Shown here: positions 4,190-61,351 of the stretch, one piece after another
How the letters are laid out: every line of letters starts with the position of its first letter
How positions within the stretch are numbered: the first letter of the stretch is position 1
Source of the DNA: Patescibacteria group bacterium
GTDB lineage: Bacteria; Patescibacteriota; Microgenomatia; UBA8517
Assembly (NCBI GenBank): GCA_035291665.1
Contig: DATDRP010000006.1
Location: 145,255 to 209,254, forward strand
DNA: 64,000 bases
Direction: 5' to 3'
The notes under the pieces: generated by a model
The model's input: the letters and a program-made list of their open reading frames with translations, nothing else
Database searches by the model: none
Told to the model about the DNA's origin: nothing
Position numbers and translations under genes: made by a program

Positions 4190-5869
4190 ATGTTATTGTC
4201 GAATGACAAACTTAAGAAGATACTTGTCGGGTCCGGATATATTACGGAACCCGATTTTGATAACGCCGTACAAAGTGCCACTGACCTGGGAAAAGACGTC
4301 TCTGACATCCTGATCTTCAGAGGATTAATCAGCGAGGATGCACTGGGTAAACTAATTTCCCAGCACTTCAATATTCCATACGTTGACGTACGGAGAATGT
4401 TTATATCAACAGAAATCCTGAAGCTGATTCCTGAGAAGTTGGCCAGGGTGTATCGAATGATTCCTTTTGAACTTACGGGGAAAAAACTTAAGGTTGCAAT
4501 GGAAAACCCTGAGGATTTTGAGGGTTTGGAATTCGCAAAACGTCAAACTGGTTTTGAGGTTGAACCGTATTTTGCAAGGTCGGAAGATATTTCAAAAGCG
4601 CTTGGACAATACAAAAAGAATCTGAAAAGCGACTTTGAGAAAATTATTTCTGAAAACCTGAAAAAAGCCAGTGTCAGCGGTAATTTGGAAAAAGCGGCAG
4701 AGGATGTTCCCATTGTTAAAATTTTAAACACAATTTTTGAATATGCTGTTGCTGCTAGGGCTTCCGATATACATATTGAAACACAAACAGATGATGTTGT
4801 AGTCAGATTCAGAATAGATGGAGTTTTACGGGACATCATAAAGTTTCAGCGCGGTATTGAAGAAGCAATTATTGCCAGAATCAAGATTCTTTCTAATTTA
4901 AAAATTGACGAACATCGTATTCCTCAGGACGGAAGATATAAATTCAATATTGATGACGAAGTGGTCGCACTTCGTATTTCTATAATCCCCGGATTTGTTG
5001 GGGAAAACGTTGTCATGAGAATTCTTCGCGAGACCAACCGGCCGTTGAGTTTTGAAGAGCTGGGTATAACCGGAAAAGGCTTGAAAATTCTTAGAGATAA
5101 TACTTCAAAACCACACGGAATGATTCTTGTCACGGGTCCGACCGGATCCGGAAAAACTACGACTCTCTACTCCGTTTTGAATGTCTTAAATACAATTGAA
5201 GTTAAGATCTGTACAATTGAAGATCCGATTGAGTACGGAGTTAACCGAGTAACTCAAATTCAGGTAAATCCAAAAACAGGATTAACTTTTGCCTTAGGCC
5301 TTCGGGCTTTAATGAGACACGACCCGGATATTATTATGGTTGGAGAAATCCGCGATCAGGAAACAGCAGAAATAGCAATTCATTCTGCTTTGACGGGACA
5401 TCTGGTATTATCCACCCTGCACACAAATACGGCATCCGGCGCAGTACCCCGGCTTTTGGACATGGGTGCAGAACCGTATCTTTTGGCTTCAACTCTGAAT
5501 CTGATCGTGGCGCAAAGACTGGTTCGGAGGATTTGCCAGACATGCATTACAAAATACCAACCCGATCCGGAAATAATAAAGCGCATCGAGAAGGATCTTG
5601 GAGCAGACTATATAAAAATAAAATTTTATAAAGGCAAAGGTTGCGATGAGTGTAATAATAAGGGCTATTCAGGACGGGTTGGCATATATGAAATACTACC
5701 CGTTACAGAAAAACTACGGGAAGTAATTTCAAAAAAACCATCTTCCGAAATGCTTGAAGATCAGGCATTAAAGGAAGGGATGGTTTCAATGCTTCAGGAC
5801 GGAGTTGATAAGGTTTCAGCAGGACAAACGACTATTGAAGAAGTCTTTAGAGTAGCAAGCGAAGATTAA
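4190..5869 (+). CDS. pilB: Type IV pilus assembly ATPase PilB (GspE family)
   Basis: N-terminal T2SSE_N-like domain. Walker A VTGPTGSGKTTTLYS, Asp box, Walker B and His box. C-terminal tetracysteine CxxC...CxxC. Confidence 0.9.
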   Translation: MLLSNDKLKKILVGSGYITEPDFDNAVQSATDLGKDVSDILIFRGLISEDALGKLISQHFNIPYVDVRRMFISTEILKLIPEKLARVYRMIPFELTGKKLKVAMENPEDFEGLEFAKRQTGFEVEPYFARSEDISKALGQYKKNLKSDFEKIISENLKKASVSGNLEKAAEDVPIVKILNTIFEYAVAARASDIHIETQTDDVVVRFRIDGVLRDIIKFQRGIEEAIIARIKILSNLKIDEHRIPQDGRYKFNIDDEVVALRISIIPGFVGENVVMRILRETNRPLSFEELGITGKGLKILRDNTSKPHGMILVTGPTGSGKTTTLYSVLNVLNTIEVKICTIEDPIEYGVNRVTQIQVNPKTGLTFALGLRALMRHDPDIIMVGEIRDQETAEIAIHSALTGHLVLSTLHTNTASGAVPRLLDMGAEPYLLASTLNLIVAQRLVRRICQTCITKYQPDPEIIKRIEKDLGADYIKIKFYKGKGCDECNNKGYSGRVGIYEILPVTEKLREVISKKPSSEMLEDQALKEGMVSMLQDGVDKVSAGQTTIEEVFRVASED

Positions 5870-5877
5870 AAAAGCTT

Positions 5878-7086: not shown

Positions 7087-7136
7087 ACGATTCGGTTCAA
7101 AATTCAATACCCCTCCGAATATATATAAAATTTCTC

Positions 7137-7853: not shown

Positions 7854-7864
7854 CGTTATTGTTC

Positions 7865-9295: not shown

Positions 9296-9345
9296 TTTCT
9301 GGTTTACATTAAGTATAAAATAATTGCAAACGTATAGGATGCTAG

Positions 9346-11297: not shown

Positions 11298-11468
11298 GGG
11301 CAGGTACATTGATATAAAGTATAGCATTTGGCATAATGGTAGAAAGAAGATGCTCAAAACTATTGTTTTGGACGTTTTGGTTTGGTTAGAAAAAATATAA
11401 TTAGGTAGTATGGTTATTTTCAAATTTCTTAATATCTTAGTATCTTAATATCTAATGCAAGTCCTGCC

Positions 11469-12863
11469 ATGGTAAGAAGATCATTCGTTTCAATATATTT
11501 CTTGAATAGTCAGTTCCAGCTGGTTATTCTTTCCGGATCAAAGAAAAAAGTTCAAAAGTATACAACGATTGATTTACCCGAAGGACTGATTTTGAATCAT
11601 GAAGTTCAAGATCCGAAACTCCTTGGTGAAATTCTTAAGAAAGTTTGGGCTAAATACAAAATCAAAGAAAAAAGTGTGGGAATAGTCGTTCCGGAGTTTT
11701 CCACATTCACAAAAAGCTTTAACCTGCCCGATCTTGCTGAAGACGAACTTGATGAAGCAGTAAGATGGCAATCATTAGACTATATTCCGTTGAATCAAAA
11801 TGAGATGGTGCTGGATTGGAAGGTAATTAAACGTACGGAAGCTTCTGTTCAGGTGTTGGCAGTTGCAATAAAGGACAATATTCTCAAAGGTTATGTTGAT
11901 GCAACAGCCCTAGCCGGTCTTTACCCCTTAGTTGTTGAAACACCTTCAATTTCCCTGACGCGTATTAGCGGTGAGAAGGGTGAAAAAATTATTATATTTT
12001 TCTCATTCGATGAAGTTATTATTGTCTTGGCTGATGGCCAAAGTATAATTTCGAGTTCGGTGCTGCATTCCTCCGCTTCGGCACAGGACATCGTACGGAC
12101 CTCCCAGCGGATGACTGCACACTATCAGGATATTTCCATCAAAGAAGTTTATCTTGGAGGTGTAATTTCATCTCAGGAAATTGTTAATCAAGTGGTAACG
12201 GGCTTAAACCTCAAAGCGGTAAAAATTGGGATTAAGGAAATTTCATTTAATGACTCGGAACTTCAAAAATATCTGATTCCGATTTCGCTTCAATTCAAAG
12301 ATCCTGCTGAACCATCAAGTTCAGAAACAATTAACTTATTGCCGGGCGCCGTTGTTTCAAAATATGAAAAGAAAAGATTAAGTGTTCAACTTTGGAGTTT
12401 GATGATGATTACGACTGTGATAATAGTCGTAAGTTTTTTAGCACTTCTGGGAAGTTATATGTACATTATTCAGAACCAGTCTTTTTACAACAATAAAAAT
12501 GAATCCGAAGTTGCAACGTACGGGAAAAACAAAGACGCATTGGAACAGATAAAAACCATCAATTTATCGTCCGATAGGGTTAAAAGTATTTTTAATCTTA
12601 TGCTGTATCCGCAGGATGTTTTAAACCTTGTAAAGAGTGCTGATCAGGAAGGTATACGTGTGATAAATTATAAAATTGATTTTGAAAAAAGGACAGCGCT
12701 CATACAGGGTGTTGCATCAACCAGAGATAATTTGCTGGATTTTAAAACCAGCCTGGAAAAAATGGAAGGAATTTCCGAAGTAAAGCTTCCCCTTTCAAGT
12801 TTTGAAAAAGAAACGGATTTAGAATTCAATATTTCGTTTACGTTTTTGCGTCAAAAAAAATAA
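11469..12863 (+). CDS. pilM: Type IV pilus assembly protein PilM fused to a PilN-like C-terminal membrane segment
   Basis: Actin-like PilM region (VGIVVPEFSTFTKSFNLPDLAEDELDEAVRWQSLDYIPL) followed by a single TM (LWSLMMITTVIIVVSFLALLGSYMYII) and a ~140-aa periplasmic tail, in one ORF. Confidence 0.7.
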   Translation: MVRRSFVSIYFLNSQFQLVILSGSKKKVQKYTTIDLPEGLILNHEVQDPKLLGEILKKVWAKYKIKEKSVGIVVPEFSTFTKSFNLPDLAEDELDEAVRWQSLDYIPLNQNEMVLDWKVIKRTEASVQVLAVAIKDNILKGYVDATALAGLYPLVVETPSISLTRISGEKGEKIIIFFSFDEVIIVLADGQSIISSSVLHSSASAQDIVRTSQRMTAHYQDISIKEVYLGGVISSQEIVNQVVTGLNLKAVKIGIKEISFNDSELQKYLIPISLQFKDPAEPSSSETINLLPGAVVSKYEKKRLSVQLWSLMMITTVIIVVSFLALLGSYMYIIQNQSFYNNKNESEVATYGKNKDALEQIKTINLSSDRVKSIFNLMLYPQDVLNLVKSADQEGIRVINYKIDFEKRTALIQGVASTRDNLLDFKTSLEKMEGISEVKLPLSSFEKETDLEFNISFTFLRQKK

Positions 12864-12869
12864 ATTAAT

Positions 12870-13487: not shown

Positions 13488-13689
13488 TTTTTTCTTTCTG
13501 TTCATTGGGGTAATGATAGTATTGGCTATCTTTGTTGTTGTGGCTTTCAAGGAAATATTTTCATCCATTCGAACGAGTTCCGATGTGACCGTTTCACTTT
13601 CGGAAAATGAATTGAAAGTTGATAAAAATAAATTACAGGAAGCTGTAAGTTTGATTGAATCTAAGGATGTTGTAGAATTAAAAAAGTAA
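13456..13689 (+). CDS. Hypothetical small membrane protein (possible PilP-like); overlaps previous gene
   Basis: 78-82 aa with a single TM (FFFLFIGVMIVLAIFVVVAF). Exact start uncertain. Confidence 0.25.
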   Translation: MSQRALTKIDSFFFLFIGVMIVLAIFVVVAFKEIFSSIRTSSDVTVSLSENELKVDKNKLQEAVSLIESKDVVELKK

Positions 13690-14147
13690 TGAAAAATAAA
13701 TTTAAAGCCTTTACTTTAATTGAACTTTTGATTGTAATTTCGATTATCGGACTACTGGCAACAACAATGGTCATTGCCATTAACCCTTCAAAACAATTAG
13801 CAAAAGCCAGGGATGGACAGAGAGAAGGTGATGTCTATTCAATTTTTTCCTATGTTCAGCAATACAAATCAGAACACAATGGAACATTACCCGATACTGA
13901 CGGAGATCCGGAAACGAATAATTTTCCCACAAGCTTGACTTGTATTGGATCGTCGGGAGGGTGCTTTAACCTTGCAGGAGCCGGTGACGATGATGAATCA
14001 ATAGTGCCTGACTATGCAGCAGCGCTCCCAACTGATCCGAAGACAGGAAGTGGAGTAAATACAGGTTATTTGATTATGGTTGATGCTTATGGCCACATTA
14101 CCGCATCCGCCTCAGGTGAAACAAAGACAATCAGCATAACGAGGTAG
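13689..14147 (+). CDS. pilA: Type IV major pilin
   Basis: MKNKFKA|FTLIELLIVISIIGLLATTMVIAI: a class III signal peptide with Phe at +1 and Glu at +5. Two Cys near the C-terminus (C...C disulfide loop). Confidence 0.85.
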   Translation: MKNKFKAFTLIELLIVISIIGLLATTMVIAINPSKQLAKARDGQREGDVYSIFSYVQQYKSEHNGTLPDTDGDPETNNFPTSLTCIGSSGGCFNLAGAGDDDESIVPDYAAALPTDPKTGSGVNTGYLIMVDAYGHITASASGETKTISITR

Positions 14148-21839: not shown

Positions 21840-22712
21840 CTATTTTCCATAGTCAAAATAACCGTCCTTGAATCCCTCTATTATTTCTCTTATTAGCTCG
21901 CCTGCTTTTTTGGCTGCAGCCCTCGGTAGGTCGCCTGCGCCCGAGAAAATAGAATCCTTAGGGCAAGCAGTTAAAGAATCATCTTCATCAAGCTTATGCG
22001 ATTCACTGGTTAGAACCGGAATTGTTCCTGCGGATTGTTCAACGAAAACTCTTGTGTTAATAGTTTCGAATCTTTTGTTGATTTCCCAGATGCCGCTAAT
22101 TGCGGGACTTTTATCAGATCCTAATGGACTACCGAGAAGGTCATTTTTTTCCAAATCAGTCAGTTCACAGTTAAAATTCTCAATTAGTCCCAAACCTTTG
22201 GTACCGGTAGGTGTATTTACGCCAAATACTGCGTAAATCGCATCTCCCGTAAACGGGCGGGGGATTTTGACAACATATGTTATGAGTACGTCATTAAGTG
22301 TGATCTGCTCACCGCCGGAGTTTTCTCTGACATCTTTTAGAATTTTATCATCGGGATTCGGCGTTGGAGTTAAAGTGTCAAGGGGAATTGCAGTGGTAGG
22401 TCTTGTCGTTGGTGATTCAACTGTAAATTTTGCAGGAGTTAAGGTTGGTGTAGGTAGAATAACTATTGTCGGTACTTCTTTTTTGGTTTGCAATTCAGAA
22501 ACCTGAGTTTGGAGGGCATTTTGGGTAGCCTGAAGTTTTTGATATTCTTTTAGTAAATCTTTGGGCACTGAAGTTTCCTGAATTTTATTTCCACTTTCTT
22601 CCGCTTCATCCTGGGTAGATGAATTTACCGGTCTGCATGCGGAAACAAACATCGATGCGATAGTTATATACGAACCGGTTCTGATTAACCAATTGGGGTT
22701 ATCTTTCCTCAT
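21840..22712 (-). CDS. Hypothetical lipoprotein with PT-rich linker
   Basis: Lipobox-like ...ASMFVSAC. Coiled-coil segment. TPTLTP...TLTPTPNP linker. C-terminal globular domain. Confidence 0.5.
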   Translation of the reverse strand: MRKDNPNWLIRTGSYITIASMFVSACRPVNSSTQDEAEESGNKIQETSVPKDLLKEYQKLQATQNALQTQVSELQTKKEVPTIVILPTPTLTPAKFTVESPTTRPTTAIPLDTLTPTPNPDDKILKDVRENSGGEQITLNDVLITYVVKIPRPFTGDAIYAVFGVNTPTGTKGLGLIENFNCELTDLEKNDLLGSPLGSDKSPAISGIWEINKRFETINTRVFVEQSAGTIPVLTSESHKLDEDDSLTACPKDSIFSGAGDLPRAAAKKAGELIREIIEGFKDGYFDYGK

Positions 22713-26858: not shown

Positions 26859-27167
26859 ATGCCGGAAAGAAAAAGGTGCGGAGCGCAGATTCACCACCCC
26901 AATTGTGATGGCTGGGCAAACTCCATTGATCATTTTACCCCGAAGTGCATAGGACAGGCTTTCGGTTTGGAGAAAAAAGAAGTAGCGTCAGAGGAAAATC
27001 TGGTACCGATGAATAAGCTTTGCCACAGACTGAAAGATCAATCAACAACTCAGCGTTATCAATTACTAATGAAACAAAAGAGGGGAAGCAGTATTTCCCT
27101 TGATGATTATAGAAATATGAGAAATAGGTATGATCTTGTTTTTGTAACCGAAGGCTCCAGTGACTAA
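26859..27167 (+). CDS. HNH endonuclease family protein
   Basis: C...H..NC......DH..P......N...CH(x)...: Cys pair plus HNH catalytic His-Asn-His spacing. Confidence 0.5.
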   Translation: MPERKRCGAQIHHPNCDGWANSIDHFTPKCIGQAFGLEKKEVASEENLVPMNKLCHRLKDQSTTQRYQLLMKQKRGSSISLDDYRNMRNRYDLVFVTEGSSD

Positions 27168-45170: not shown

Positions 45171-46121
45171 ATGAAGAAAAAATCTGCCCAATTTGGATTT
45201 GACGATATCCGGTCAAAATTAAAACTCAAAAACCTTGAACAGCGTCAGAAGATATTAAAAAAATACCCGAGCGTTGATAAAATATTTTCTGAAAGAGGAA
45301 TAGATATCGGCCGGATTCGGGAACATTCTGCAAGACTATTAGGTGCAGGAATTATAAGCGGAACTCTTCTTTTGGGACAACCCGATACAGCCCATACTCT
45401 CCCGGCTCCTGATTATACCGATCCAAAAGAGATTGAAAACGCCCTGGCGAGAATGAAAACAAAAAAAGAAGGCTTGGTCGAAACTTTGACAGCAATACTC
45501 CCGGCAACAGCAAGACCTTTAAACCGCAACGAAGAAAAAATGCTGGAAGGGGTATTTAAAAATTATATCGGAGTGGATGCAAGAGCCGGCCTTGAAGGCG
45601 AACATTTAAATCAAACCTATGGTTATATCGGCGCAGAACAGCATCTGATCCGATATCCGGGTGATTCAATTGTTAGTCACGGTGATCCGCAAATTCAGAG
45701 ATCCGGGATGGCTCCCGGTAAAGGCGCGTGGGGTTATTTTGCAAATTCAGCCTCGGTACTGACGGACAATCTATCCGAAACAGAGAAATGGTACGCTGTT
45801 GTACAAACTTTATATCTTCCGGACTGGGGAACAAGACAGCCATACTTGAAAAACTGGTACAAATACCGCAAAGTTTTAATCGTAAATACAAAAAACGGAA
45901 ATGCGGTTGTTGCAGCAATTGCTGATTCAGGCCCCGCCGCTTGGACAGGGAAACACTATGGGGGAAGTCCTGAAGTAATGTATCATCTTGGCGGACAAAA
46001 GTATAAAAAAGGTGCGGTAATTGTTTTTTTTGTTAACGATCCGGATAATAAAGTACCACTAGGCCCGGTTGAATATGAGGAAATTAATTTGAATTTGGTT
46101 GAAACAGAAATTGCAACATAA
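45171..46121 (+). CDS. Hypothetical protein with RlpA/3D-like double-psi beta-barrel C-terminal region
   Basis: KVLIVNTKNGNAVVAAIADSGPAAW resembles the RlpA block VrVtNlxNGrsVvVRvNDRGPF. N-terminal region is unassigned. Confidence 0.35.
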   Translation: MKKKSAQFGFDDIRSKLKLKNLEQRQKILKKYPSVDKIFSERGIDIGRIREHSARLLGAGIISGTLLLGQPDTAHTLPAPDYTDPKEIENALARMKTKKEGLVETLTAILPATARPLNRNEEKMLEGVFKNYIGVDARAGLEGEHLNQTYGYIGAEQHLIRYPGDSIVSHGDPQIQRSGMAPGKGAWGYFANSASVLTDNLSETEKWYAVVQTLYLPDWGTRQPYLKNWYKYRKVLIVNTKNGNAVVAAIADSGPAAWTGKHYGGSPEVMYHLGGQKYKKGAVIVFFVNDPDNKVPLGPVEYEEINLNLVETEIAT

Positions 46122-47229: not shown

Positions 47230-47709
47230 TTATTTTTGAAGCGGGACTTCGGAAATGTTGATCTGGTAAGTTTTCACATCCTGGGGTGAAATGTTGGTCT
47301 CCCACGGTTTTTTGTATTCAAAACGGATTTCTGATTTTCCGCTTTTAAGAATTTCGAATTCAAAGTACTGGGTACCGCCGGAGCCCACCAGCTTTTCATT
47401 ACCTTTTGCTAAATAAGTATTATTAAGAAGCTTAAAATAACTTTTATCAAAATTAACCTGCCATTGATATCCCGTTGAAGGATCAGTATAAAGTGCAAGT
47501 TTTAGTGGTTTTCCGAACTCAACAAAAACAGGGATCTCGGATGAAGCAGCCGGAGTTGGGGTTATTTCGATCCGGTTGGCAGTTGACACAGATTCCCGTG
47601 GCTGAGTTTTTTTTGAAACCGCGGCCTGGTAAACAATTAAAGTAAGTATAAGGAGTACAATAATTCCCCCAGGAATGGCAAAGATCAGGATGTGTTTTTT
47701 CTGCAGCAT
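47230..47709 (-). CDS. Chagasin-family (I42) peptidase inhibitor, membrane-anchored
   Basis: N-terminal TM. TGYQW...GSGGTQYFEFEILKSGKSEIRFEYKKPWE matches the chagasin NPTTGY(x)W / GxGG / RPW motifs. Confidence 0.65.
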   Translation of the reverse strand: MLQKKHILIFAIPGGIIVLLILTLIVYQAAVSKKTQPRESVSTANRIEITPTPAASSEIPVFVEFGKPLKLALYTDPSTGYQWQVNFDKSYFKLLNNTYLAKGNEKLVGSGGTQYFEFEILKSGKSEIRFEYKKPWETNISPQDVKTYQINISEVPLQK

Positions 47710-49351: not shown

Positions 49352-50494
49352 GTGAAAAAAGATCTTGCCGGAAAAACACTTCTCCTACACGCAAAGTTTG
49401 CAGGTAAACTCGGAACTCAAGTTTTGACGCCCATCAGAACAAAAGACGATTTGAGTTTGGTGTATACACCCGGTGTTGCGTCAGTTTCTTCCGAAATCGC
49501 GAAGCATCCGGAAAAAATATATAAATATACGATAAAAAGCCACACAGTTGCTGTTGTCAGTGATGGATCGGCCGTCTTGGGGTTGGGCGATATTGGAGCC
49601 GCTGCGGCGATACCTGTAATGGAAGGCAAGTGCGCCCTTTTTAAGACTTTTGCAGGACTTGATGCGTTTCCGATTTGTTTGACTACACAAAATCCAAAGG
49701 AGATTATAAGTATTGTAAAAAATATTTCTCCCGTTTTCGGAGCAATTAATTTGGAGGACATTTCTGCTCCCCGTTGTTTTGAGATTGAGGAAGCTCTTCA
49801 GAATATCGGGATTCCTGTTATGCATGACGATCAGCATGGGACTGCGGTTGTTGTTCTTGCTGGACTTATAAATGCATTAAAAGTCGCAGGTAAAAAGATG
49901 AATCAGATAAAAGTGGTTCTTCTCGGGGCGGGAGCTGCAGGAAATGCGATTGCGAATTTTTTGTCCGATAAGGTGAAGGAGTTGGTTGTTGTTGACAGCC
50001 GGGGGATTATCTCAAAAAAAAGAAGCGATCTGGATAAATATAAAAAAAGACTACTAAGGTTTTCTAACAGGAAAAATGTTTCAGGAAGCCTGGCTGATGC
50101 TTTGCCTGGAGCTGATGTTTTTATCGGTGTTTCAAGAGGAGGGCTTTTTGAGCCCGGTTTTGTGAAGTTGATGAATGAAAAATCAATAATTTTTGCTCTT
50201 GCCAATCCTACCCCTGAAATTATGCCGGAAATTGCACATAAAGCCGGTGCATTTATTGTTGCCAGCGGCCGGAGCGACTACCCAAACCAAATTAACAATT
50301 CACTCGCTTTTCCGGGGATTTTTAAAGGGACATTAATTTCCGGTGCTTCAAGAATCACGCGGGAAATGAAAGAAAGCGCAGCAGTCGCTTTATCCCGGTT
50401 GGTTAAAAATCCTACAAGAGAAAAAATAATTCCCGGACCTTTTGATAAAGGTGTGGTGGAAGTAGTTTCCAGGGCAGTTATAAACGCATCCTAG
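49352..50494 (+). CDS. maeB: NAD(P)-dependent malic enzyme (short form)
   Basis: LSLVYTPGVA, the malic-enzyme divalent-cation/NAD sites, Rossmann GAGAAG. Confidence 0.85.
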   Translation: MKKDLAGKTLLLHAKFAGKLGTQVLTPIRTKDDLSLVYTPGVASVSSEIAKHPEKIYKYTIKSHTVAVVSDGSAVLGLGDIGAAAAIPVMEGKCALFKTFAGLDAFPICLTTQNPKEIISIVKNISPVFGAINLEDISAPRCFEIEEALQNIGIPVMHDDQHGTAVVVLAGLINALKVAGKKMNQIKVVLLGAGAAGNAIANFLSDKVKELVVVDSRGIISKKRSDLDKYKKRLLRFSNRKNVSGSLADALPGADVFIGVSRGGLFEPGFVKLMNEKSIIFALANPTPEIMPEIAHKAGAFIVASGRSDYPNQINNSLAFPGIFKGTLISGASRITREMKESAAVALSRLVKNPTREKIIPGPFDKGVVEVVSRAVINAS

Positions 50495-50874: not shown

Positions 50875-51258
50875 ATGCAAACAGGATCTGAACTTTGTAA
50901 AATATGCCCTATTAATGAGAGCTGCAGTTCAGATCTTAACCCTGAAAGTGCAACAAAAAGGAGGCTTGTCATTAATAATCCCTGGAACTGCCGGCATCTG
51001 ACGTGTCCTGCAGGCGTTGAAGAAGCCAAAAAGGAAAAGTCGCGTTTAAGATCTAAAAATATATTTTTTGGTTATGCCTACTTTTCGTCAAAGGACAAAC
51101 CAAGTGTCAGAAGATTTGATATGAAGTTGGGTATTATCGAATCATTTCAGGATGGACAGTGGCATTCAACAGGTCAGTCAATCTATAAAAATTATATTGT
51201 TGATAGAAAAAACTATCCATATAAAAGAATCAGGAATTTCAGTGTGAAGAAAACTTAA
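50875..51258 (+). CDS. Hypothetical Cys-containing protein
   Basis: CKICP...C...C...CRHLTCP: 6 Cys in the first 50 aa. Confidence 0.4.
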   Translation: MQTGSELCKICPINESCSSDLNPESATKRRLVINNPWNCRHLTCPAGVEEAKKEKSRLRSKNIFFGYAYFSSKDKPSVRRFDMKLGIIESFQDGQWHSTGQSIYKNYIVDRKNYPYKRIRNFSVKKT

Positions 51259-51323
51259 AACTAAATACCCACTTCCCACAACTCATTTCCTATTTCTTTC
51301 CCCTTTTCTCTATTAGCTAATTT
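51259..51323 (+). repeat. CT-rich modular intergenic repeat (short copy)
   Basis: aaaacttaaaactaaataCCCACTTCCCACAACTCATTTCCtatttctttccccttttctctattagctaattttt shares its head and tttc(c/g)cttttctctatt modules with copies at 53795 and 59598. Confidence 0.6.
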
Positions 51324-51776
51324 TTAATCCCTGACTTTTGTCTTTTCTATATCTTCTTCGCTCATGCCGAAATGGTGGGCGATTTCGTGAATAACGGTAT
51401 TTTTGATATTAACAACTGCGTTTTCATAACTATTAGAAATCCGAAGAAGGGGAATTTTAAAGATTGTGATCTTATCAGGGAGCGGTCCGCCGATGCCATA
51501 GTTTCTTCTTTTTGTCTGGGGTATTCCTTCATACAAACCAAGAAGTAATCCTCTGCCTTGGTTTCTCCCGACAAGGTTCATTTGCGATACCGTCGGCCAG
51601 TCAGCAATTACAATTGCCACATTTTCCATTTTGTCTTTGAACTCCTGAGGAAGTTCTTTCAGCGCCTGATCGATAATTTTCCCAAACTCCTGATCATCCA
51701 TGAAGGAAATTATATTTAATCCCAAGCTTAACGGCAAGGAAGGTTCATCGCTGAAGACCAATTCGGCGGCTTTCAT
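51324..51776 (-). CDS. Zincin_1-like (DUF1025) putative zinc metallopeptidase
   Basis: C-terminal HEIAHHFGMSEEDI matches the HExxHHFG zinc-binding signature. Confidence 0.6.
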   Translation of the reverse strand: MKAAELVFSDEPSLPLSLGLNIISFMDDQEFGKIIDQALKELPQEFKDKMENVAIVIADWPTVSQMNLVGRNQGRGLLLGLYEGIPQTKRRNYGIGGPLPDKITIFKIPLLRISNSYENAVVNIKNTVIHEIAHHFGMSEEDIEKTKVRD

Positions 51777-51826: not shown

Positions 51827-53065
51827 ATGGACGAAGCCGGGGATAACATTACTGGAAGTCATATCTCAAGAAGAGATTTTTTGAATATGGGAGTATTGGG
51901 TTTGGCATCAATTGCTACTGGTAAAAAATTGGTGAATACCATTAATTATCTCGCTGACGCATTAGGTGATAAAGTTGAAGAATCGGGAATTAATAACAAG
52001 CTCCATGAAGTTTTGAAAATTGTTCAGGAAAATTCAAAGATGATTGTTAATTTTTCTGACAAATATGGTATCCCACCGGAAGTTTTGGCGACAGTTGTGT
52101 CTATGGAACATTTGATTATTTTAACCGGTAAAACGAAAAAAGATGGATATGCGATAGGTATTTCGGAATCAGATTCCATAAAAGGATTTACTGATTTAAT
52201 CGAGAAAGAAATTCACCCCGATAAAGCCAATATAGGATTGTGTCAAGTAAATCTTCAGGATGCAATCAATTTTGAAGACCGATTGGTTGGAAAAGATGCG
52301 TTTCCTGATGCGGATAAGCAAAAAAGAGAACAAACGACTTATGAGAGGCTGGAATCTCCTTGGTGGAACATGGTGTATTTTTCAGAAATGCTTAAAAAAG
52401 AGGCCGCTGATACCGGAAAAACTATTACAGACAAACAAGCAGCAACCCAGTTTATCAGAGAAAAATACAATGACGACTCTCATAAGTTAAAAATATTTAA
52501 TGAACTACTGGATGTATATTCAAACTTTTTTCAGGATAAGAAACCGGATGAAAAATTTAAGAGGTGTTCACTCGAAGAAGCGATAAGTGTTTGGAATGAA
52601 TACCCAGAGTATTCACATTTATTCCGAAGTGTTTGGCCTGTTGAATACTTTGTAGTTCATCATACTGCAGGTAAATATCACACTGAGTCGATAATCACAG
52701 CGGAACACATTGCCAAAGGTTTTGGTGACATTGGTTATAACGGAATTATCGGGAATGGCGAACTTACAAGCGACGGTAAATTTTATCCTGGGAGAAGTAC
52801 AAAAAAAGAAGGTGCGCATACTTTGAGCTACAACAAAAAGTCCATCGGTGTTGCTTTGGTCGGGGATTTCAATATAACTGAACCCACAACGCTACAACTG
52901 GATTCATTAAGGAAAGCCATTATTGCCAGTTCTGCAATTTATGAGATTGATCCTTTCAAAGTAGTTGGCCACAGAGAACTAAATGATACGCAGTGTCCGG
53001 GAAATAATTTTACAACTGATAAATTCAAAAGACCGGTAGATGTGGCCGCAGGGAAAATAGTATAG
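51827..53065 (+). CDS. N-acetylmuramoyl-L-alanine amidase (Amidase_2/PGRP domain) with Tat signal and N-terminal domain of unknown function
   Basis: Twin-arginine SRRDFLNMGVLGLASIATG. C-terminal YFVVHHTAG...GYNGIIGNGEL...GAHTLSYNKKSIGVALVGDF...VVGHRELNDTQCPG. N-terminal region has a weak SLT-like E-S...GLCQV. Confidence 0.75.
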   Translation: MDEAGDNITGSHISRRDFLNMGVLGLASIATGKKLVNTINYLADALGDKVEESGINNKLHEVLKIVQENSKMIVNFSDKYGIPPEVLATVVSMEHLIILTGKTKKDGYAIGISESDSIKGFTDLIEKEIHPDKANIGLCQVNLQDAINFEDRLVGKDAFPDADKQKREQTTYERLESPWWNMVYFSEMLKKEAADTGKTITDKQAATQFIREKYNDDSHKLKIFNELLDVYSNFFQDKKPDEKFKRCSLEEAISVWNEYPEYSHLFRSVWPVEYFVVHHTAGKYHTESIITAEHIAKGFGDIGYNGIIGNGELTSDGKFYPGRSTKKEGAHTLSYNKKSIGVALVGDFNITEPTTLQLDSLRKAIIASSAIYEIDPFKVVGHRELNDTQCPGNNFTTDKFKRPVDVAAGKIV

Positions 53066-53200
53066 AAAAACTTAACTCCAAATAACTTAATTTCTATTTT
53101 TCCCTTTCCCACTACTCACATCCCACTTCCCATCACCTACCCCCTACAACCTATCTCCTACCGCTTACAATCCACTTTTTATCTCCATTCATCTATATTT
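53066..53200 (+). repeat. CT-rich modular intergenic repeat
   Basis: aaaaacttaactccaaataacttaatttc...tcccactactcacatcccacttcccatcacctaccccctacaacctatctcctaccgcttacaatccac. Confidence 0.6.
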
Positions 53201-53232
53201 GTAGCTTTCGGATGGCGTACAATACCAGCATT

Positions 53233-53543: not shown

Positions 53544-53786
53544 ATGCCGGAAAAGTGGTTTCGAAGGGTAGAAAATTTGGCAATTATTCCAGTAATAGGT
53601 GGTGATTTACCGGGTATGTATAGGGAGTTTCCACCTGAACTTCATGATGCTTTTGAGGAAGGTAAAAAAGCACTGGTTCCCGGTGAACAGTCTTATATAT
53701 CTATGAGGGGTCCTGTAAAGTATGGTGGTTTTGAAAGCAAAGTATTCATCGTTTCGAAGATCACTCTCGTAAAAGTTGCAGGGTGA
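53544..53786 (+). CDS. Hypothetical small protein
   Basis: 80 aa. Faint similarity to the preceding ORF (ILALIKGGL vs LAIIPVIGGDL). Confidence 0.4.
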   Translation: MPEKWFRRVENLAIIPVIGGDLPGMYREFPPELHDAFEEGKKALVPGEQSYISMRGPVKYGGFESKVFIVSKITLVKVAG

Positions 53787-53794
53787 GAAACTAC

Positions 53795-54030
53795 TAAAAA
53801 CTTAAAACTGAATACTAAATACTCACAACTCACTTCCCACATCTCACTTCCCATTTCTTTTCGCTTTTCTCTATTCTCTTAATTCCTTAATTCCTATATT
53901 CCTAATTTCTTATCTTCATTTCCCACAACTCACTTCTCACTACTCATTTCCTACTTCCTACCTCCTACAACCTATAACCATTGCCCCTCTCATTTCTCAC
54001 ATCCCACATCCCATCTCTTACAACCTACCG
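53795..54030 (+). repeat. CT-rich modular intergenic repeat (longest + strand copy)
   Basis: aaaacttaaaactgaatactaaatactcacaactcacttcccacatctcacttcccatttcttttcgcttttctctattctcttaattccttaattcctatattcctaat...cctacaacctataaccatt... Confidence 0.65.
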
Positions 54031-54056
54031 ATCAGTGTTAATATACCAATATAAGT

Positions 54057-55028
54057 ATGAAGAAAATAATTGCCGCTATTTTACTATTATTAACAGCCGC
54101 ATTTGTGTTTTTCGGTTGGCAATATTTTGCTCCGGTTGGTTCATCCGAAGATCTTGTGGTTTTTGTCGTTCCGGAAAAAATGCCGGATTTTAATGTACCC
54201 GAAGAACTGTATAAGCAAAAATATATTAAAAGTTCCAAGGCCTTCCGGTTCCTTCTTGAAAATTTTGCACCGGGAGTAGAGATAAAACCCGGCGGATATA
54301 AAATAAGTCAAAACATGAATGCTTGGCAGGTTATGAAAAAGATTACAGGACAAGAGGATTTGAAATGGGTAACAATTTCTTATTGCCCCCGGAAAGAACA
54401 GGTTGGCGAGAAGCTTGCAGAAGTCTTGGGGTGGAACGACCTGAATCTAAGTGATTGGAATTCGCTCTATAAAAATACCAAACAGGAGTATTTTGAAGGA
54501 GTCTATTATCCGGATACATATCTGATTCCGGTTGACGAATCCCCATCACAAGTTGCCGGAAGATTTATAAACCGTTTCAATGAAAAGTTCGCACCTTTAT
54601 CGGAAAAGTTTATAGAAAAAAATATCAAATGGACGACAGGTCTCAAGATTGCCTCACTTATAGCCCGCGAAGCAGGAGGAACAGAGGATATGAATATAAT
54701 ATCTGCCGTAATCTGGAACCGTTTGGACGGGGGAATGCCGCTTCAGATTGATGCAACGATGCAATACACTCTCGGAAAAAATGAGGATGGCAGCTGGTGG
54801 GGAAATATTGATCTTTCAGAAAAAGATAAAGACTCGCCCTATAATAGCTATATGTATAAAGGACTTCCTCCCACTCCTATTTGCAGTCCGAATGTTAGTG
54901 CCATTGAAGCTGTTATTAACCCCGAAGAAACCGATTGTCTATTTTATCTGCATGACAAGAATAAAAATATTCATTGCGCGGTTTCCTACAAAGACCATCT
55001 GAAGAATATCCAAAAATATTTGAAGTAA
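54057..55028 (+). CDS. mltG: Endolytic murein transglycosylase MltG (YceG family)
   Basis: GGYKISQNMNAWQV; EGVYYPDTYLI; ASLIAREA; VIWNRLDGGMPLQIDATMQY; PYNSYMYKGLPPTPICSP. N-terminal TM. Confidence 0.8.
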   Translation: MKKIIAAILLLLTAAFVFFGWQYFAPVGSSEDLVVFVVPEKMPDFNVPEELYKQKYIKSSKAFRFLLENFAPGVEIKPGGYKISQNMNAWQVMKKITGQEDLKWVTISYCPRKEQVGEKLAEVLGWNDLNLSDWNSLYKNTKQEYFEGVYYPDTYLIPVDESPSQVAGRFINRFNEKFAPLSEKFIEKNIKWTTGLKIASLIAREAGGTEDMNIISAVIWNRLDGGMPLQIDATMQYTLGKNEDGSWWGNIDLSEKDKDSPYNSYMYKGLPPTPICSPNVSAIEAVINPEETDCLFYLHDKNKNIHCAVSYKDHLKNIQKYLK

Positions 55029-55134
55029 ACATTAAAAATATACTATAAGAATATTCAGGAAAAGCCATCGAGTCTAATTGGATCTACCTCGACATCCAAG
55101 CTTGACTTGACTCGGGGGGGGATGTCATAGTCAT

Positions 55135-55163
55135 TGACTTATGGGATAGTTTGATGCAATAAT
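55135..55163 (+). promoter_or_regulatory. Candidate sigma70 promoter for the giant gene: TTGACT, 17 nt, TGcAATAAT
   Basis: -35 55135-55140, -10 55158-55163 with upstream TG. The ATG at 55173 lies ~10 nt downstream, implying a very short leader. Confidence 0.3.
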
Positions 55164-55172
55164 CACTTGAGA

Positions 55173-58100
55173 ATGCGGACGTTTTCAAGAAAGCTATCAT
55201 ATCTTCTTTGTTTTACTCTTCTTTTTTACCAACTCTCCCTTTTTTTATTCAACGATGCAAAAACCGCACAAGCAACTACGGCATCATATCAAGTGTCAAC
55301 TTCTACTGATGATGTAAACGAAGACGGCGGGACAATGAATTCAACAAGTACCAGTATTTGGGTGGGAACGGGCGGATCCACAAGCCAAAGTTACACCGGT
55401 TTCCGATTTACCAACGTAAGTATTCCCCAAGGATCAACTATTACATCTGCTTATATAGAGCTTTGGTCTATCCAAGATTCATGGATTGATACCGGTTATC
55501 AAATCGGGGCAGAAAATGTCGGCAATAGTACAACTTTCACAAGTACAACAAAGCCGTCACAACGGGCTCTGACAACCGCCGTGGTCAACTATTCATCAAG
55601 CTCCCATTGGTTAATCAACACTTGGTATCAGGATGCAAACATACCCTCAGTTATTCAGGAAGTTGTTAACCGTACTGATTGGACAAGCGGTAATGCGTTG
55701 TCGATTATTTACAAGGGAACTTCCGCAGCATGGGGTAGAAAGTATGCATCAAGCTATAACGGGAACCCATCCTATGCTCCGCGTTTAGTTGTTGCATTTG
55801 AAGCCGCAACCACGCCTAGTCCGACGCCGCCGCCGACGCCCACTCCCACTGAAACTCCGACTCCTACACCAACAGAAACACCAACTCCTACTCCTACCGA
55901 ATCTCTAACTCCGACTCCCACGGAAATCCCCACTCCCACTCCGACCGAGACGCCAACGCCAATGCCTACCCCAACAGCCTCGGTTACCCCGACACCTCAG
56001 CCACCTTCGGAATGGACGCAGCTCGGACATGACGCACAGCATTCATCGTACACGGAACAATTTGTCCCAACCCCATGGAAGTGGAAATGGTCATGGAACG
56101 GACCCGACGCAGCAGGAAATGTACGTGCGGATAAACTGAATTATCCCGGAAGCAGTGATTTTACAACTCCGGGTATCCCTCGGAATATTCAACCGGTGAC
56201 CGGTGGGGGTAAAGTATATATTGCTGCCGGAAATTTCGGTGTTTACGCCCTTAATGAGGAAGACGTAAATACTGACAGTTTTGCAGATGTTTTGTGGAAC
56301 GTAAATCCGGTTGCTGGTGGTGGAGTTAAGTCAACTCCCGCATACGATAGCGAAACTGGAGCATTATTTGTTCTTGGAACAAATGGCGTTGTTTACAAAT
56401 TGGATACCCTTAACAGCGGGATCGTGATTGGAGAATTTAATACAAATCAAAGTTATGCACCATATACAACAAGTGCTGACCGATACAATCGGGTAGCGTT
56501 GCCGACATCCCCCACACTTTCGGGAAACCGGTTATTTGTATCGATGGGACAGAAAGTTTTTGCACTGGACAAAAACAATCTTAGTAATCTTATATGGGAG
56601 TACGATGCGGGAGCAGAAGTTTATACACCGCCTGCATACTCAACTGTCAGGGATATGGTCTTTGTTGCATCTCAGGATTTGACACCCGGTCCGGATGGAA
56701 AACTTCATATTTATACGCATGCAATATCAAATTCTAATGGACTGGAATTGTGGAAGACTAGCATCACTAATATCACCGGTGTTGAAGCGGGAGACCCCAA
56801 CCCGCCTCCAAATTACACCAGCCAGGTAAGAGCGGAAGTACTTAACGGTTGGCCGGTTATTGCTGAAGAACATGGTCTGGTTTTTATCAAATTAAGACTT
56901 AATTGGAATACGATGTGGACTTGGAGTCCCTGGTCAACGAGCAATGAGACGAACCGGACGAGGCTTCTTTCCAATCCAACACAACAAGCTCTGATTGCTC
57001 TTTCAATGGATAGCGGGAGCCAACCGTTTGTTGTCAATATCGGTCACGGAGGCTATGGAGATGGATTCATCCCGATGGGACCCCAACCGGTTGTAAAGAG
57101 GTTTGCCGATGGGAGTGAAGTTGTCTATACGATGGTAAGGGGAGACAGTCAATCCGGTGTTGACGGTCGTTCGGATACCCACTTTGGGGAGTTGGTTTTG
57201 GATTCAACAACAGCAACCGGATTTGAACCGGGCTATGTCAGATGGATTGAATACGGTAATTATGGTTGGCCGGCAAATTCAAATAATGATACTCCGCCGA
57301 CAGATGAGCAGCCGAATGTATCAATGTCAGGAAACTATCTTTTCGGAGGCCACTGGGCTGTTGGGAATGCGATGGAAATCGTTGATAGGAATGCAAATTT
57401 GGGAGGCTATTCAAACCCCATCACAACAGAACCGATTCCGAATATCGCTTTAATGACAAATTCGTCAACTGTTCCGGAAGGATTTGACTCTTCACACTAT
57501 GTTTCACACAATTTTGGCATGGCAACGAATGGGGAATGGAGGGCGTTGCCTCCCGGATTTTACGTATATTGGAATCAAGGGCATCTTTATGATCAATACT
57601 GGAGCGACTACTCTACCTGGACAGTTAGTAATAATACCGTTTACTATTTGACGAATGATGGTGCACTTGTTGCTTTAGATCACAATAGTGGCAGTCCTAC
57701 ACCTACACCAACACCCAGTCCAACTGCCACGCCTACTCCCACTGAAACTCCGACTCCGATACCGACCGAGATACCAACACCTACGCCAACTGAGATTCCT
57801 ACCCCGACACCGACTGACATTCCGGCTCCGACTCCAACAGAAATACCTACTCCGACACCTACGGATTCTCCCACTCCAACGCCGACTGATACGCCCACTC
57901 CCACGGACACACCCACTCCGACACCTCCGCTAGTGATTAATATGGCTGTCATGAGCGACAGCTCTTCTGATGAGTATCGTGCAGACGACAATCGTGCCGG
58001 AGGAACTCAATGGGAGTTAACAACGCTGGCCTGGACCGAGTTATTGGAAAAATATCGCGGATTTAATTTGGGGTCTTGGGGAACGCGTGGGGAGCCAAGA

Positions 58101-59597
58101 CGGACCGGTTATGAATACAATTGGGCAAGGACAGGTGCCGAAGCAGCAGATGTAGTTTTTGCCGGCCAACATACAGGCGTTGCTTCCCAGGCACAGTCGG
58201 GTTTAGTCAATATTGTTTATTTCCAGATAGGAAACAACGATTTTGCATATTACCGAGACGGTGCAGATATATATAACGGTGCTCTTTCAGGACAGGCTTT
58301 AACCGATAAAATTAATGCAATAATTTCAAATATCTCAACTTCTCTCGATACTGTTTTGGATGCAGATCCAAACGTAAAGGTAATTCTTGGAAATATTGCA
58401 GATCCTGGACTATCACCTTATTGGGCAGCACAATTCCCTGATCCGGTAAAAAGGCAGTTGGTTACCGATGCAATAAACCAAACTAATGCGGGTATAACAA
58501 ACCTGCTTCTTACCCGGAGCAGAGTTACTTTATTTGATCAAATGGCTTTTGCAAACGAGCTTATGTCTAAGGTTGTTAATGGTAATTTGGTGATAGGCGG
58601 AGAAAATATCAGCTTAACTCAAAATGGCGATGAACCCCACCATGCAATTTTGGGAGATAATATCCATGGCGGGACAGTAATGGAAGGCTTAGTTGCCAAC
58701 GGTTTGATTCCTCTGGTAAATCAGACAACCGGATCGCAGATTCAATTATTTTCTGAAACCGAAATTTTGAATAATTCTGGTATCTTTCCCAGTCCGACTC
58801 CGACTCCCACGGTGATTCCTACTCCGACACCTACTCCGGTGTTTGAAACTCACTATATATCGGTAAATCCGGACGGAGTTATCGGAGGGGTAGCTGTTGC
58901 CGGAGAAGATATTCTCAAATTCAATACCGTAACTGGTTTGTATGAAACATACTTCGACGGTTCGGATGTTGAGCTTTCGGGAACATCGATTGATGCGTTT
59001 ACCTTTCTTCCCGGAGGCGACATGATTCTGTCTTTTTCCGGAAGCGTTTCAATAACTGGGTTGGGGACAGTCGCTTCGCAGGACTTGGTCAGGTTTACTC
59101 CGCTTTCGACAGGTAATAGTACAAGCGGATCTTTTAGTTTATATTTTGACGGATCAGATGTTGCCTTAAGCAATTCGTCGGAAAATATAGATTCAGTATC
59201 GGTTTTGGAAAATGGGGATATTCTCTTATCAACAAATGGCAGTATTTCCGTAACCGGAGTTTCAGCAAACGATGAAGATATTATCGAATTTACTCCGACT
59301 TCACTCGGTCCGGCAACTTCGGGAAGCTGGTCACTTTATTTTGATGCATCTGATGTTGGATTATCAAGTACGAGCGAAGATATCGATGCTTTGAGTATCG
59401 CGTCATCGGGAGATTTTTATCTTTCAACAAGCGGCAGCTTCAGTGTTACGGGTGTCTCCGGTCAAAATAATGATGTCTTTATCTTTGATCCGTTAACTTT
59501 GGGAGGGGATTCGTCAGGAACTTTTTCCCAGCCGATTTATTTGGACGGAAGCGCTTTCGGATTATCGGGTTTCAACGTTACGGGATACTACAAATAA
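55173..59597 (+). CDS. Giant secreted multidomain protein: signal peptide, N-terminal domain, PT linker, beta-propeller (PQQ/BamB-like repeats), PT linker, SGNH/GDSL hydrolase, PT linker, 4x ~60-aa C-terminal repeats
   Basis: Signal peptide [24 protein letters not shown]. Three (PTPTPTE)n linkers. WKWSWNG / [13 protein letters not shown] / [14 protein letters not shown] repeats. SGNH blocks (MSDSSSDE; IGNNDF; ..DNIHG). Four repeats of ...SGS(F/W)[11 protein letters not shown]... The track ORF starts at TTG 55167. Confidence 0.8.
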
Positions 59598-59825
59598 CTT
59601 ACAACTCATTTCCCATTTATTTTCCCTTTTCTCTAGTCTCTTAGTTCCTTAATTCCTATATTCCTAATATCCTACCCCCTATCTCTAATAACCAATTATC
59701 AAATTCCAAATACCAAACAATAAATTTCTAATATCTAATTTCCAATAAATTTTCTCTTAGTTCCTTAATTCCTTTATTCCTGATATCCTACCTCCTATAA
59801 CCTGCAACCTATAACCATTATACCC
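59598..59825 (+). repeat. CT-rich modular intergenic repeat with internal duplication
   Basis: acaactcatttcccatttattttcccttttctctagtctcttagttccttaattcctatattcctaatatcctaccccctatctc...ttttctcttagttccttaattcctttattcctgatatcctacctcctataacctgcaacctataaccatt. Confidence 0.65.
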
Positions 59826-60551
59826 TCACATTCTGTAGCTTAACGCTGAAGTGTTGGCTTTTGTGATATTAACACTTAGGATTTCACCATCATAATTGAA
59901 TACGAATGAAACACGAGCATCAAGATTGTTTGTGATGTATAGATTTTGTCTTGCACTTTTATCAAATCCGCCGGGAAGATAAAAAATTGAAACTCCGTAT
60001 TCCTTCGGAACTTCATTAATAACAGCAAAATTGTGATTTGAAGGATCATATGCAGTCAGTCCTGCATCTTTTGCCGCCCAGTATAAAATTGATGCCAAAT
60101 GGCAGACACCGTCTCCCATAAGATAACCATCGGACTTGAACCCATCCTGATAGTTGAAGCGGGCATTAGTCGTTTTAACTACATTTTTATTAAACTTATC
60201 CAGTATCTGGCTATGAAAAGCAAAGCTTTCTCCCGGGTTCAAATCAAACTTATAGTCCCTGGGTTTTTCAATATTCTCCCAGACGATTTCTGATTTATTT
60301 TTAACTGTCCCGTCCATATAGTTTAAAGTCAGAAGGATATTATCTTTGAATACATCATTTACAAATTTATTGGGATATCTCTCCTCCAAAGATATGGATT
60401 TTGAAGAAAGGGTAGAGTATCCTTCTTCTTCTACGGAATTATTATTTGCCACATTGACCACCTCCGCCGGGGACGACGGGAATAAAATTATCAGTAATAT
60501 AAAAAGATAAAGTAATTTTTTATACATAGGACTCACTTTTTTTTCAGACAT
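59826..60551 (-). CDS. VanW-family protein
   Basis: GDGVCHLASILYWAAKDAGL matches the VanW GGGVCQvSsTLYnAa..AGL block. N-terminal signal/TM. Confidence 0.65.
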   Translation of the reverse strand: MSEKKVSPMYKKLLYLFILLIILFPSSPAEVVNVANNNSVEEEGYSTLSSKSISLEERYPNKFVNDVFKDNILLTLNYMDGTVKNKSEIVWENIEKPRDYKFDLNPGESFAFHSQILDKFNKNVVKTTNARFNYQDGFKSDGYLMGDGVCHLASILYWAAKDAGLTAYDPSNHNFAVINEVPKEYGVSIFYLPGGFDKSARQNLYITNNLDARVSFVFNYDGEILSVNITKANTSALSYRM

Positions 60552-60655: not shown

Positions 60656-61351
60656 ATGGCAAAATATCGGAAAAACAATTTCCCCTATCTGATAACCGTA
60701 CTTTCCGTAGTTCTTATTAGCCTTGGAATTTTTATATCAAAAAGGAATGTTTCCTATTCCAAGTGTGCAAACACTTTGAGCTGTGAAGAAAGTCTTAACT
60801 TTTCCATAAACAATGATGAAACAGCCGTTTTTAATGGTGAAATCATTAAGCCGCCGGAAATAGATCTTGCGCAAATTATTGACGAACCGAAAGTATTGGG
60901 TGAAGAAACCGCAGTTTCGGACAAACGTATTGAAGTTGACTTGACTACGCAAACCCTCAAAGCATATGAAGGAGAGAAGCTTTATATGGAAAGTAAAATA
61001 TCATCCGGAAAAATGTTTCCTACGCCAAACGGGGAATTTACCATATGGAGAAAAATAAGAGCCACCAAGATGTCGGGCGGGACGGGTAATGGATATTATT
61101 ACCTTCCGAATGTGCCGTATGTTATGTTTTTTTCCGGTTCCAAATTATCAGCCGGACTCGGGTTTAGCCTTCACGGTACATATTGGCATGACAATTTTGG
61201 CCACCCCATGAGTCACGGCTGTGTGAACATGAAGACGCGGGATGCAAAGAAACTTTTCGAATGGGTGGATCCTCCAATGACTCCCGAACAAAAACAATCC
61301 GAACCGGGTGAAACCGGAACAAAAATAATCATATATGGAAAAGCACCATAA
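60656..61351 (+). CDS. L,D-transpeptidase (YkuD domain)
   Basis: Catalytic SLHGTYWHDNFGHPMSHGCVNM (His...SHGC). N-terminal TM. Confidence 0.8.
   Translation: MAKYRKNNFPYLITVLSVVLISLGIFISKRNVSYSKCANTLSCEESLNFSINNDETAVFNGEIIKPPEIDLAQIIDEPKVLGEETAVSDKRIEVDLTTQTLKAYEGEKLYMESKISSGKMFPTPNGEFTIWRKIRATKMSGGTGNGYYYLPNVPYVMFFSGSKLSAGLGFSLHGTYWHDNFGHPMSHGCVNMKTRDAKKLFEWVDPPMTPEQKQSEPGETGTKIIIYGKAP

Follow-up and report, generated by a model that had tools for sequence, protein, structure and literature searches.

We analysed a window of 64,000 nucleotides (nt) from a Patescibacteria group bacterium (NCBI GenBank assembly GCA_035291665.1, contig DATDRP010000006.1, positions 145,255 to 209,254 of the forward strand), in which the plus strand carries a long gene for a predicted secreted protein of four modules. 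The open reading frame (ORF) spans window positions 55167..59597 and encodes 1476 amino acids (aa) when read from a TTG codon and 1474 aa when read from the ATG at 55173; an earlier start is excluded by an in-frame stop at 55152-55154. The gene call of an independent JGI assembly uses the ATG (position 3117 of its contig L001), and this codon is favoured because a transcription start about 7 nt after the -10 box would fall downstream of the TTG. Residue numbers throughout are counted from the TTG at 55167. The coordinates of the gene, its modules and its surroundings are collected in Table 1.

Table 1. Features of the modular gene and its neighbourhood, in window coordinates.
Feature	Position	Strand	Remarks
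Amidase_2	51827-53065
MltG/YceG	54057-55028
Sigma-70-like promoter	55134..55163	+	TTGACT 55134-55139; 18-nt spacer; extended -10 TGc-AATAAT 55155-55163
Coding sequence	55173..59597	+	ATG start, 1474 aa plus stop; alternative TTG 55167 gives 1476 aa
Sec-type signal peptide	55167..55274	+	aa 1-36; predicted cleavage after AQA36; read manually from sequence
DNRLRE/CBM96-type beta-sandwich module	55275..55805	+	aa 37-213
Pro-Thr linker 1	55806..56021	+	aa 214-285; 8-residue period; JGI assembly breaks just upstream
PQQ-like (BamB-like) beta-propeller	56022..57686	+	aa 286-840, 555 aa; from Pfam, homologs and PDB profile
Pro-Thr linker 2	57687..57929	+	aa 841-921; from sequence and Tandem Repeats Finder
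SGNH/GDSL hydrolase domain	57930..58781	+	aa 922-1205; blocks I, II, III and V
 block I			S930-D-S932; predicted nucleophile Ser932
 block II			G990
 block III			G1022-x-N1024-D
 block V			D1164-x-x-H1167
Pro-Thr linker 3	58782..58841	+	aa 1206-1225; from sequence
Four-bladed beta-propeller	58842..59594	+	aa 1226-1476; four repeats of ~64 aa; uncharacterised domain family
3' spacer	59598..59825	+	2% G, 29% C; unstructured; 65-nt direct repeat
VanW	59826-60551	-
YkuD L,D-transpeptidase	60656-61351

An original prediction, made from the bare sequence, had described a secreted protein of 1476 aa with an N-terminal domain that it left unnamed, a WD/PQQ-like propeller, an SGNH hydrolase and four C-terminal repeats of about 60 aa, joined by (PTPTPTE)n linkers. 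The ORF and the upstream stop bear out the length, and a manual reading of the sequence bears out the signal peptide, which has a basic n-region (RMRTFSRK), a 19-residue hydrophobic core and an AQA-TT cleavage site. A lipoprotein signal was considered and rejected, the Cys at residue 15 having no lipobox context. Behind the signal peptide, globular stretches at aa 37-213, 286-840, 922-1205 and 1226-1476 are separated by three Pro-Thr linkers, as had been claimed, with the correction that the linker DNA has a period of 24 nt (Tandem Repeats Finder) and hence encodes an 8-residue unit, xxPTPTPT, rather than one of seven residues. Two further ORFs lying across linker 2, at 57680-57991 (-) and 57688-57933 (+), with translations of the type GVGVSVGV and LRLR, are by-products of the repetitive Pro-Thr-coding DNA and not genes. 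Pfam and NCBIfam scans of the whole protein returned only weak propeller matches and low-complexity noise from the linkers, and the protein was split into its modules for the family searches. An exact-sequence look-up of both start variants found no match. Since coverage of the query does not exceed 42% for any database protein, the exact combination of modules is new; the overall design, that of a classical multi-modular extracellular enzyme, is already known. No further copy of any of the four modules occurs elsewhere in the window.

The SGNH module is the one with recognisable catalytic machinery. It has 194 full-length homologs, of which the 120 listed are 40-64% identical to it over the whole domain, most of them with PF13472/PF00657. 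In the resulting alignment of 121 sequences the block I nucleophile Ser932 is kept in 120; position 990 in block II is Gly in 99 and Ala in 19; in block III, Gly1022 is invariant (121/121), with Asn1024 in 117 and Asp1025 in 119; and in block V, Asp1164 is kept in 119 and His1167 in all 121. The Ser, Gly, Asn and His blocks named in the original prediction are all present, at 82-100% conservation among homologs, and the check it had proposed, an alignment in search of a missing catalytic tetrad, finds the tetrad in place. On sequence grounds we regard the domain as a bona fide SGNH hydrolase, and the conservation of its catalytic residues argues for a working enzyme. With the PF13472/PF00657 enzymes of the COG3240-type branch it has in common the Ser, Gly, Asn and Asp-x-x-His of blocks I, II, III and V. 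It differs from the known SGNH/GDSL hydrolases in the additional conserved motifs of its own subfamily, in having no solved or characterised close relative, and in being embedded in a four-module protein. Stand-alone homologs with 43-53% identity also exist (L086, 7001-8008; L088, 7001-8026; L087, 7001-8230). Some stand-alone homologs carry dockerins, and one of them adjoins a sortase, a cohesin-like gene and glycosyltransferases; both the dockerins and this sortase/cohesin neighbourhood suggest surface display.

The N-terminal domain can now be given a family. A Pfam scan of aa 37-213 yielded no match, and the NCBIfam DNRLRE model (NF033679) scored 26.4 bits (E 6.2e-6, profile positions 13-163 of 164), below its cut-off of 34 bits. 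The same profile matches 26 of the 36 copies of the family (best E 1.9e-10), and Pfam CBM96 touches only one of the 36. AlphaFold2, run on aa 37-213 with an alignment of the 36 copies, returned a model with a predicted local distance difference test (pLDDT) score of 97.7, and the predicted structure has the beta-sandwich fold of the solved DNRLRE/CBM96 members. It matches solved polysaccharide-binding carbohydrate-binding modules (CBMs), with only 14-15% identity to the alginate-binding CBM96 (7vbo) and to a chondroitin-sulfate-binding CBM (8wab). CBM96 is described as an alginate-binding relative of the DNRLRE domains in carbohydrate-active enzymes (PMC9971899). As modelled, the N-terminal module is a divergent DNRLRE/CBM96-type beta-sandwich, and by analogy with these relatives it probably binds a glycan. 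Local BLAST finds this type of module in 46 of the top 120 whole-protein matches, often at both protein ends or in several copies, and it adjoins the present SGNH subfamily in P0002, P0003, P0004 and P0005. In the PDB, the profile of this module found designed 'Pizza' propellers and nothing else; as no stretch passed alone, the match was judged compositional.

For the largest module, the PQQ-like half of the proposed WD/PQQ-like propeller is supported by Pfam, by homologs and by a PDB profile search, while the WD half found no support. Pfam PQQ_2 (PF13360) reaches 26.9 bits (E 4.4e-6), just under its cut-off of 27.6, and PF13570 gives E 4e-7. At least 413 homologs share 42-73% identity with the module, most of them 43-50% across the full 555 aa, and most of the 120 listed carry PF13360, PF13570 or PF01011. 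They are mostly Chloroflexota proteins of about 700 aa annotated as PQQ-binding-like or BamB-family. Against the PDB, the family profile matches BamB (E ~1e-8), tetrathionate hydrolase, PQQ-dependent alcohol dehydrogenases (PQQ-ADH) and designed eight-bladed propellers, with E values from 1e-12 to 1e-6 and over only ~180 positions, the PQQ-ADH matches covering few blades. By homology the module is a PQQ-like propeller and a member of a mostly Chloroflexota family. Its blades resemble those of BamB and PQQ-ADH in these profile matches; the role of BamB, however, is tied to the outer membrane, whereas the homologs found here come mainly from Chloroflexota and Patescibacteria.

At the C-terminus the four repeats are real but they are not loose repeats. 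FDGSDV-type motifs recur at aa 1263, 1327, 1392 and 1459, spaced by 64-67 aa, and AlphaFold2 run on the module with 23 sequences returned a pLDDT of 95.6 and a predicted template modelling (pTM) score of 0.91. The predicted structure is a closed propeller of four blades. Of the first 120 matches, 23 contain the unit of about 250 aa as a conserved whole, at 38-49% identity. We are confident from this model that the repeats form one compact four-bladed propeller belonging to a large family without a name. Comparison of the 23 modules with the Pfam and NCBIfam models came back empty: the window module has no Pfam match at E<=10 and the 23 modules none at E<=1, and a PDB search with the C-terminal profile produced nothing meaningful. 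Foldseek gave weak generic propeller matches only (TM 0.24-0.45), and the best fold matches include a lectin and protein-binding hemopexin domains. Compared with the hemopexin fold of MMP hemopexin domains, hemopexin, vitronectin and the plant PA2 albumin/lectin (3s18), identity is 9-12%; the blades are ~64 aa long instead of ~45-50 and bear an extra hairpin, and the hemopexin repeat PF00045 has no sequence match in the C-terminal module or in the 23 family modules. Judged from the predicted structure, the resemblance to hemopexin is one of fold only, short of demonstrated homology. The literature searched on four-bladed modules of hemopexin type in bacteria offered nothing of direct relevance.

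This family is the really undescribed piece of the protein, every other module belonging at least distantly to a described one. Searched exhaustively with the family profile, 1.84 billion representatives yielded at least 4476 clusters (50% identity) at E<=1e-3, 2032 of them at E<=1e-30. In species-representative genomes there are at least 581 loci, mostly in Chloroflexota, and other hosts are Actinomycetota, Cyanobacteria (Tolypothrix, Calothrix), Planctomycetota, Proteobacteria (Methylobacter marinus) and Patescibacteria. In relatives the unit comes after metallophosphoesterases, M28 and M4 peptidases, lipase-like domains and others; many proteins carry two to five tandem copies, and 83 of the 145 top matches newly listed have the end of the module no more than 20 residues from the C-terminus. 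Its attachment to unrelated secreted hydrolases, often at the C-terminal end, fits a generic role in binding or retention. It can tentatively be speculated that the module founds a widespread, undescribed family of hemopexin fold that serves as a lectin-like or Ca2+-dependent tether, holding secreted phosphatases, peptidases, lipases and esterases on glycan surfaces and here docking the esterase to the host or to the cell's own envelope. A domain family that has no Pfam or NCBIfam model yet decorates many secreted hydrolases across phyla is of wider value than the present gene itself, as is the genome-wide architecture of gene starts described below. A pair of Cys residues, likely forming a disulfide, occurs in blade 4 of at least 90% of the family members aligned; in the window protein these two sites are occupied by Phe and Gly (aa 1440 and 1451, or positions 215 and 226 of the module; 59484-59519).

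Taken together, we consider that the gene encodes a Sec-exported modular esterase, extracellular or at the cell surface, equipped with binding modules, and assign this reading a probability of about 60%. Among functions predicted from sequence, the one suggested in the original prediction still fits best: a surface enzyme or adhesin that is possibly an esterase. In the proposed mechanism the signal peptide would be cleaved near Ala36, leaving four independently folding modules kept apart by the extended Pro-Thr linkers. The SGNH module would act on an ester (acyl) bond: Ser932 would be the nucleophile in its cleavage, the amides of Gly990 and Asn1024 would form the oxyanion hole, and His1167/Asp1164 would serve as general base. 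The DNRLRE/CBM96-type sandwich, the PQQ-like propeller and the C-terminal propeller would be non-catalytic modules for targeting or retention, holding the enzyme on a polymeric ligand that may be a glycan of the cell's own envelope, a host cell or a particulate substrate. An acylated glycan is, by analogy, slightly favoured over lipids as the substrate: the hint towards glycans comes from the CBM-type partner modules, and that towards lipids from the COG3240-type naming and a weak phospholipase match. Such a protein resembles cellulases and other enzymes of the CAZyme style with Pro/Thr linkers in its signal peptide, its one catalytic domain, its binding modules and its linkers, and in the shuffling of modules among paralogs and between genomes. 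It differs from them in that its catalytic domain has no assignment to a characterised carbohydrate-esterase family and that two of its accessory modules are propellers in place of classical CBMs. Patescibacteria depend on other cells and probably use their large surface proteins to attach and to scavenge; experimenters gain a defined target from a clean domain map that includes a testable catalytic centre.

Several observations weigh against a surface-bound, glycan-directed esterase. The domain search proposed in the original prediction did match Lipase_GDSL_2, below its Pfam cut-off. The SGNH copy itself scores 23.5 bits for PF13472 (cut-off 32.9) and 19.0 for PF00657 (cut-off 23.6), and since its own score falls short, its membership rests on transitive homology together with the motifs. 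At position 930 it has Ser, as do 10 of the 121 aligned sequences, where 110 have the usual Gly. No cell-anchoring signal was recognised in the protein among those looked for (LPXTG, SLH, lipobox, C-terminal transmembrane segment). In two genomes the stand-alone SGNH homologs sit between type I polyketide synthase (PKS) modules beside a non-ribosomal peptide synthetase (NRPS) condensation gene, so that a glycan substrate is not favoured by every context. The large propeller, by analogy with its relatives tetrathionate hydrolase and the PQQ dehydrogenases, which are enzymes, could have an activity of its own. The last two points of this kind, the sole PDB match of the SGNH profile and the names given to its relatives, belong to the question of lipids.

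This question is raised by the possibility that the SGNH module is a phospholipase or lipase, displayed on long linkers, with which a lipid-auxotrophic Patescibacterium would take acyl chains or lysolipids off the membranes of a host, to whose surface the other modules would dock it. Patescibacteria generally lack lipid synthesis, and the source organism is a metagenome-assembled genome of this group; six proteins encoded in the window are identical to entries within HLE49339-HLE49393, on a contig of 606 kb. The SGNH profile matches only the Vibrio thermolabile hemolysin, a GDSL phospholipase, in the PDB, and JGI names several SGNH relatives 'phospholipase/lecithinase/hemolysin' or 'lysophospholipase L1-like'. 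The PDB match is, however, a weak one, with E 0.002 over no more than about 100 residues, the recurrent fusion partner of the subfamily is a CBM-type module, and the richest sets of homologs for all four modules are found in free-living Chloroflexota and other phyla, so the architecture is not specific to symbionts; lipid harvesting is conceivable and not the favoured explanation. That the protein is primarily an adhesin, whose propellers and beta-sandwich attach it to a host cell or a surface while the esterase is accessory or inactive, appears unlikely. Non-catalytic beta-structure on long linkers makes up about 80% of the globular mass, the best fold matches at the C-terminus include a lectin and protein-binding hemopexin domains, and the type IV pilus genes in the window speak for a lifestyle of surface interaction. 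Yet the SGNH domain retains its catalytic residues in full, and many unrelated hydrolases bear these accessory modules too, a pattern more typical of targeting modules than of dedicated adhesins.

The surroundings of the gene raise a different idea, since SGNH enzymes include peptidoglycan O-acetylesterases and the Amidase_2, MltG/YceG, VanW and YkuD L,D-transpeptidase genes nearby all concern murein. A role as an Ape-like O-acetyl esterase working with these neighbours is quite improbable: they have promoter-like sites of their own or the opposite orientation, and close multi-domain relatives lie in unrelated contexts, between the lysyl- and seryl-tRNA synthetase genes (LysRS and SerRS). The murein-gene neighbourhood is not conserved at the relatives, whose contexts show no consistent functional partner, and the PDB profile search detected no similarity to a characterised Ape-type enzyme. 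Finally, the gene could be a chimera in which the assembly joined unrelated genes through near-identical Pro-Thr-coding repeats. Such DNA is repetitive, and the independent JGI assembly of the same population (metagenome 3300002503) splits the gene into two contigs just before linker 1. The second of these (L083), however, contains 55771-59597 contiguously at 100% identity, from the PQQ-like propeller through linker 2, the SGNH domain and linker 3 to the C-terminal propeller. The end of L001 and the start of L083 overlap by exactly 31 nt (55771-55801), and the outer flanks of the two contigs are mltG and VanW in the same order as in the window. This contiguity, overlap and flanking order make a chimera highly improbable, and the GC content at third codon positions (GC3) of all four modules, 0.35-0.39, equals that of the genome (0.358 +/- 0.032). 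The overall GC of the gene is raised (0.42-0.47). Recent horizontal transfer was considered and rejected, the module GC3 lying within the genome range and the GC excess being compositional. The JGI split illustrates how Pro-Thr-coding repeats fragment such genes in short-read assemblies.

Upstream of the modular esterase gene, a sigma-70-like promoter lies where the original prediction had placed it, with a spacer of 18 nt instead of the 17 nt given there. It matches the consensus at 10 of 12 positions and has the extended TG. Its -10 box ends at 55163, 9 nt before the ATG at 55173 and 3 nt before the TTG at 55167, and no Shine-Dalgarno motif precedes the gene; this is the geometry of a leaderless or near-leaderless mRNA. 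Transcription from the extended -10 would most likely begin 0-5 nt before the ATG, as for many genes here, and near-leaderless expression with a leader of only a few nt is plausible from the sequence. Promoter-like sites as such occur in this AT-rich region at chance level (15 against 13.9 +/- 4.2). The spacer between mltG and the gene is of ordinary composition with no convincing terminator, and read-through from mltG is a possible alternative source of transcript. An intrinsic terminator after mltG or after the esterase gene is unsupported.

The near-leaderless start had been presented as a feature of this gene; it is plausible there, but it does not distinguish the gene. In 25 of the 55 genes of the window a -10-like hexamer ends 3-12 nt ahead of the start codon; random positions yield 3.7 +/- 2.0 (maximum 10 in 200 trials). 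Nine of these boxes are perfect TATAAT, 5-11 nt from the start, and almost none of the 55 ORFs has a Shine-Dalgarno motif. Examples are the genes at 21840..22712(-), 26859..27167, 45171..46121, 47230..47709(-) and 49352..50494. With the -10 at the start in 25 of 55 genes and Shine-Dalgarno motifs nearly absent, near-leaderless starts appear from the sequence to be a genome-wide habit and no special property of the esterase gene. A literature search on leaderless Patescibacteria found nothing directly relevant. We contend that this signature matters for gene calling and for translation initiation in the group.

Downstream, the 3' spacer of the gene is one of four that lie right behind plus-strand genes and are nearly free of G (51250-51359, 53053-53209, 53786-54036 and 59584-59834), with 2-3% G, 29-35% C and no structure (minimum free energy ~0). 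The 65-nt direct repeat occupies 59637-59701 and 59753-59817, and related copies lie at 53843-53906 and 51278-51312. Since this composition resembles that of Rho-utilisation (rut) regions, the spacer at 59598..59825 is, by analogy, a possible Rho-type termination region for the esterase gene. Rfam has no match in the window or around the gene. Two stretches of the plus strand, at 666-778 and 13602-13707, are conversely depleted of C (<=3 C per 100 nt) and thus mirror the G-depleted spacers; their position is not, however, the simple one behind minus-strand genes that would be expected.

Two relatives of the gene, in two small genomes, occupy the same slot (L089, 6001-10302, and L091, 6001-9189), in the order GreA, hypothetical protein, class I LysRS, HD protein, the gene and SerRS. 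One protein (P0004) combines GSDH, PKD, SGNH and a DNRLRE-type module, and the other (P0001) Laminin_G_3, a PQQ-like propeller and a DNRLRE-type module; these different sets in one syntenic slot suggest module shuffling at a conserved LysRS/SerRS locus. Elsewhere in the window, a type IV pilus gene set spans 4190-13487, including a PilB-type ATPase (4190..5869) and a PilM-like gene (11469..12863), and the aspartyl-tRNA synthetase (AspRS) is a short form of 463 aa whose match to the AspRS profile is split into two stretches. Both the pilus set and the short AspRS fit a reduced Patescibacteria genome.

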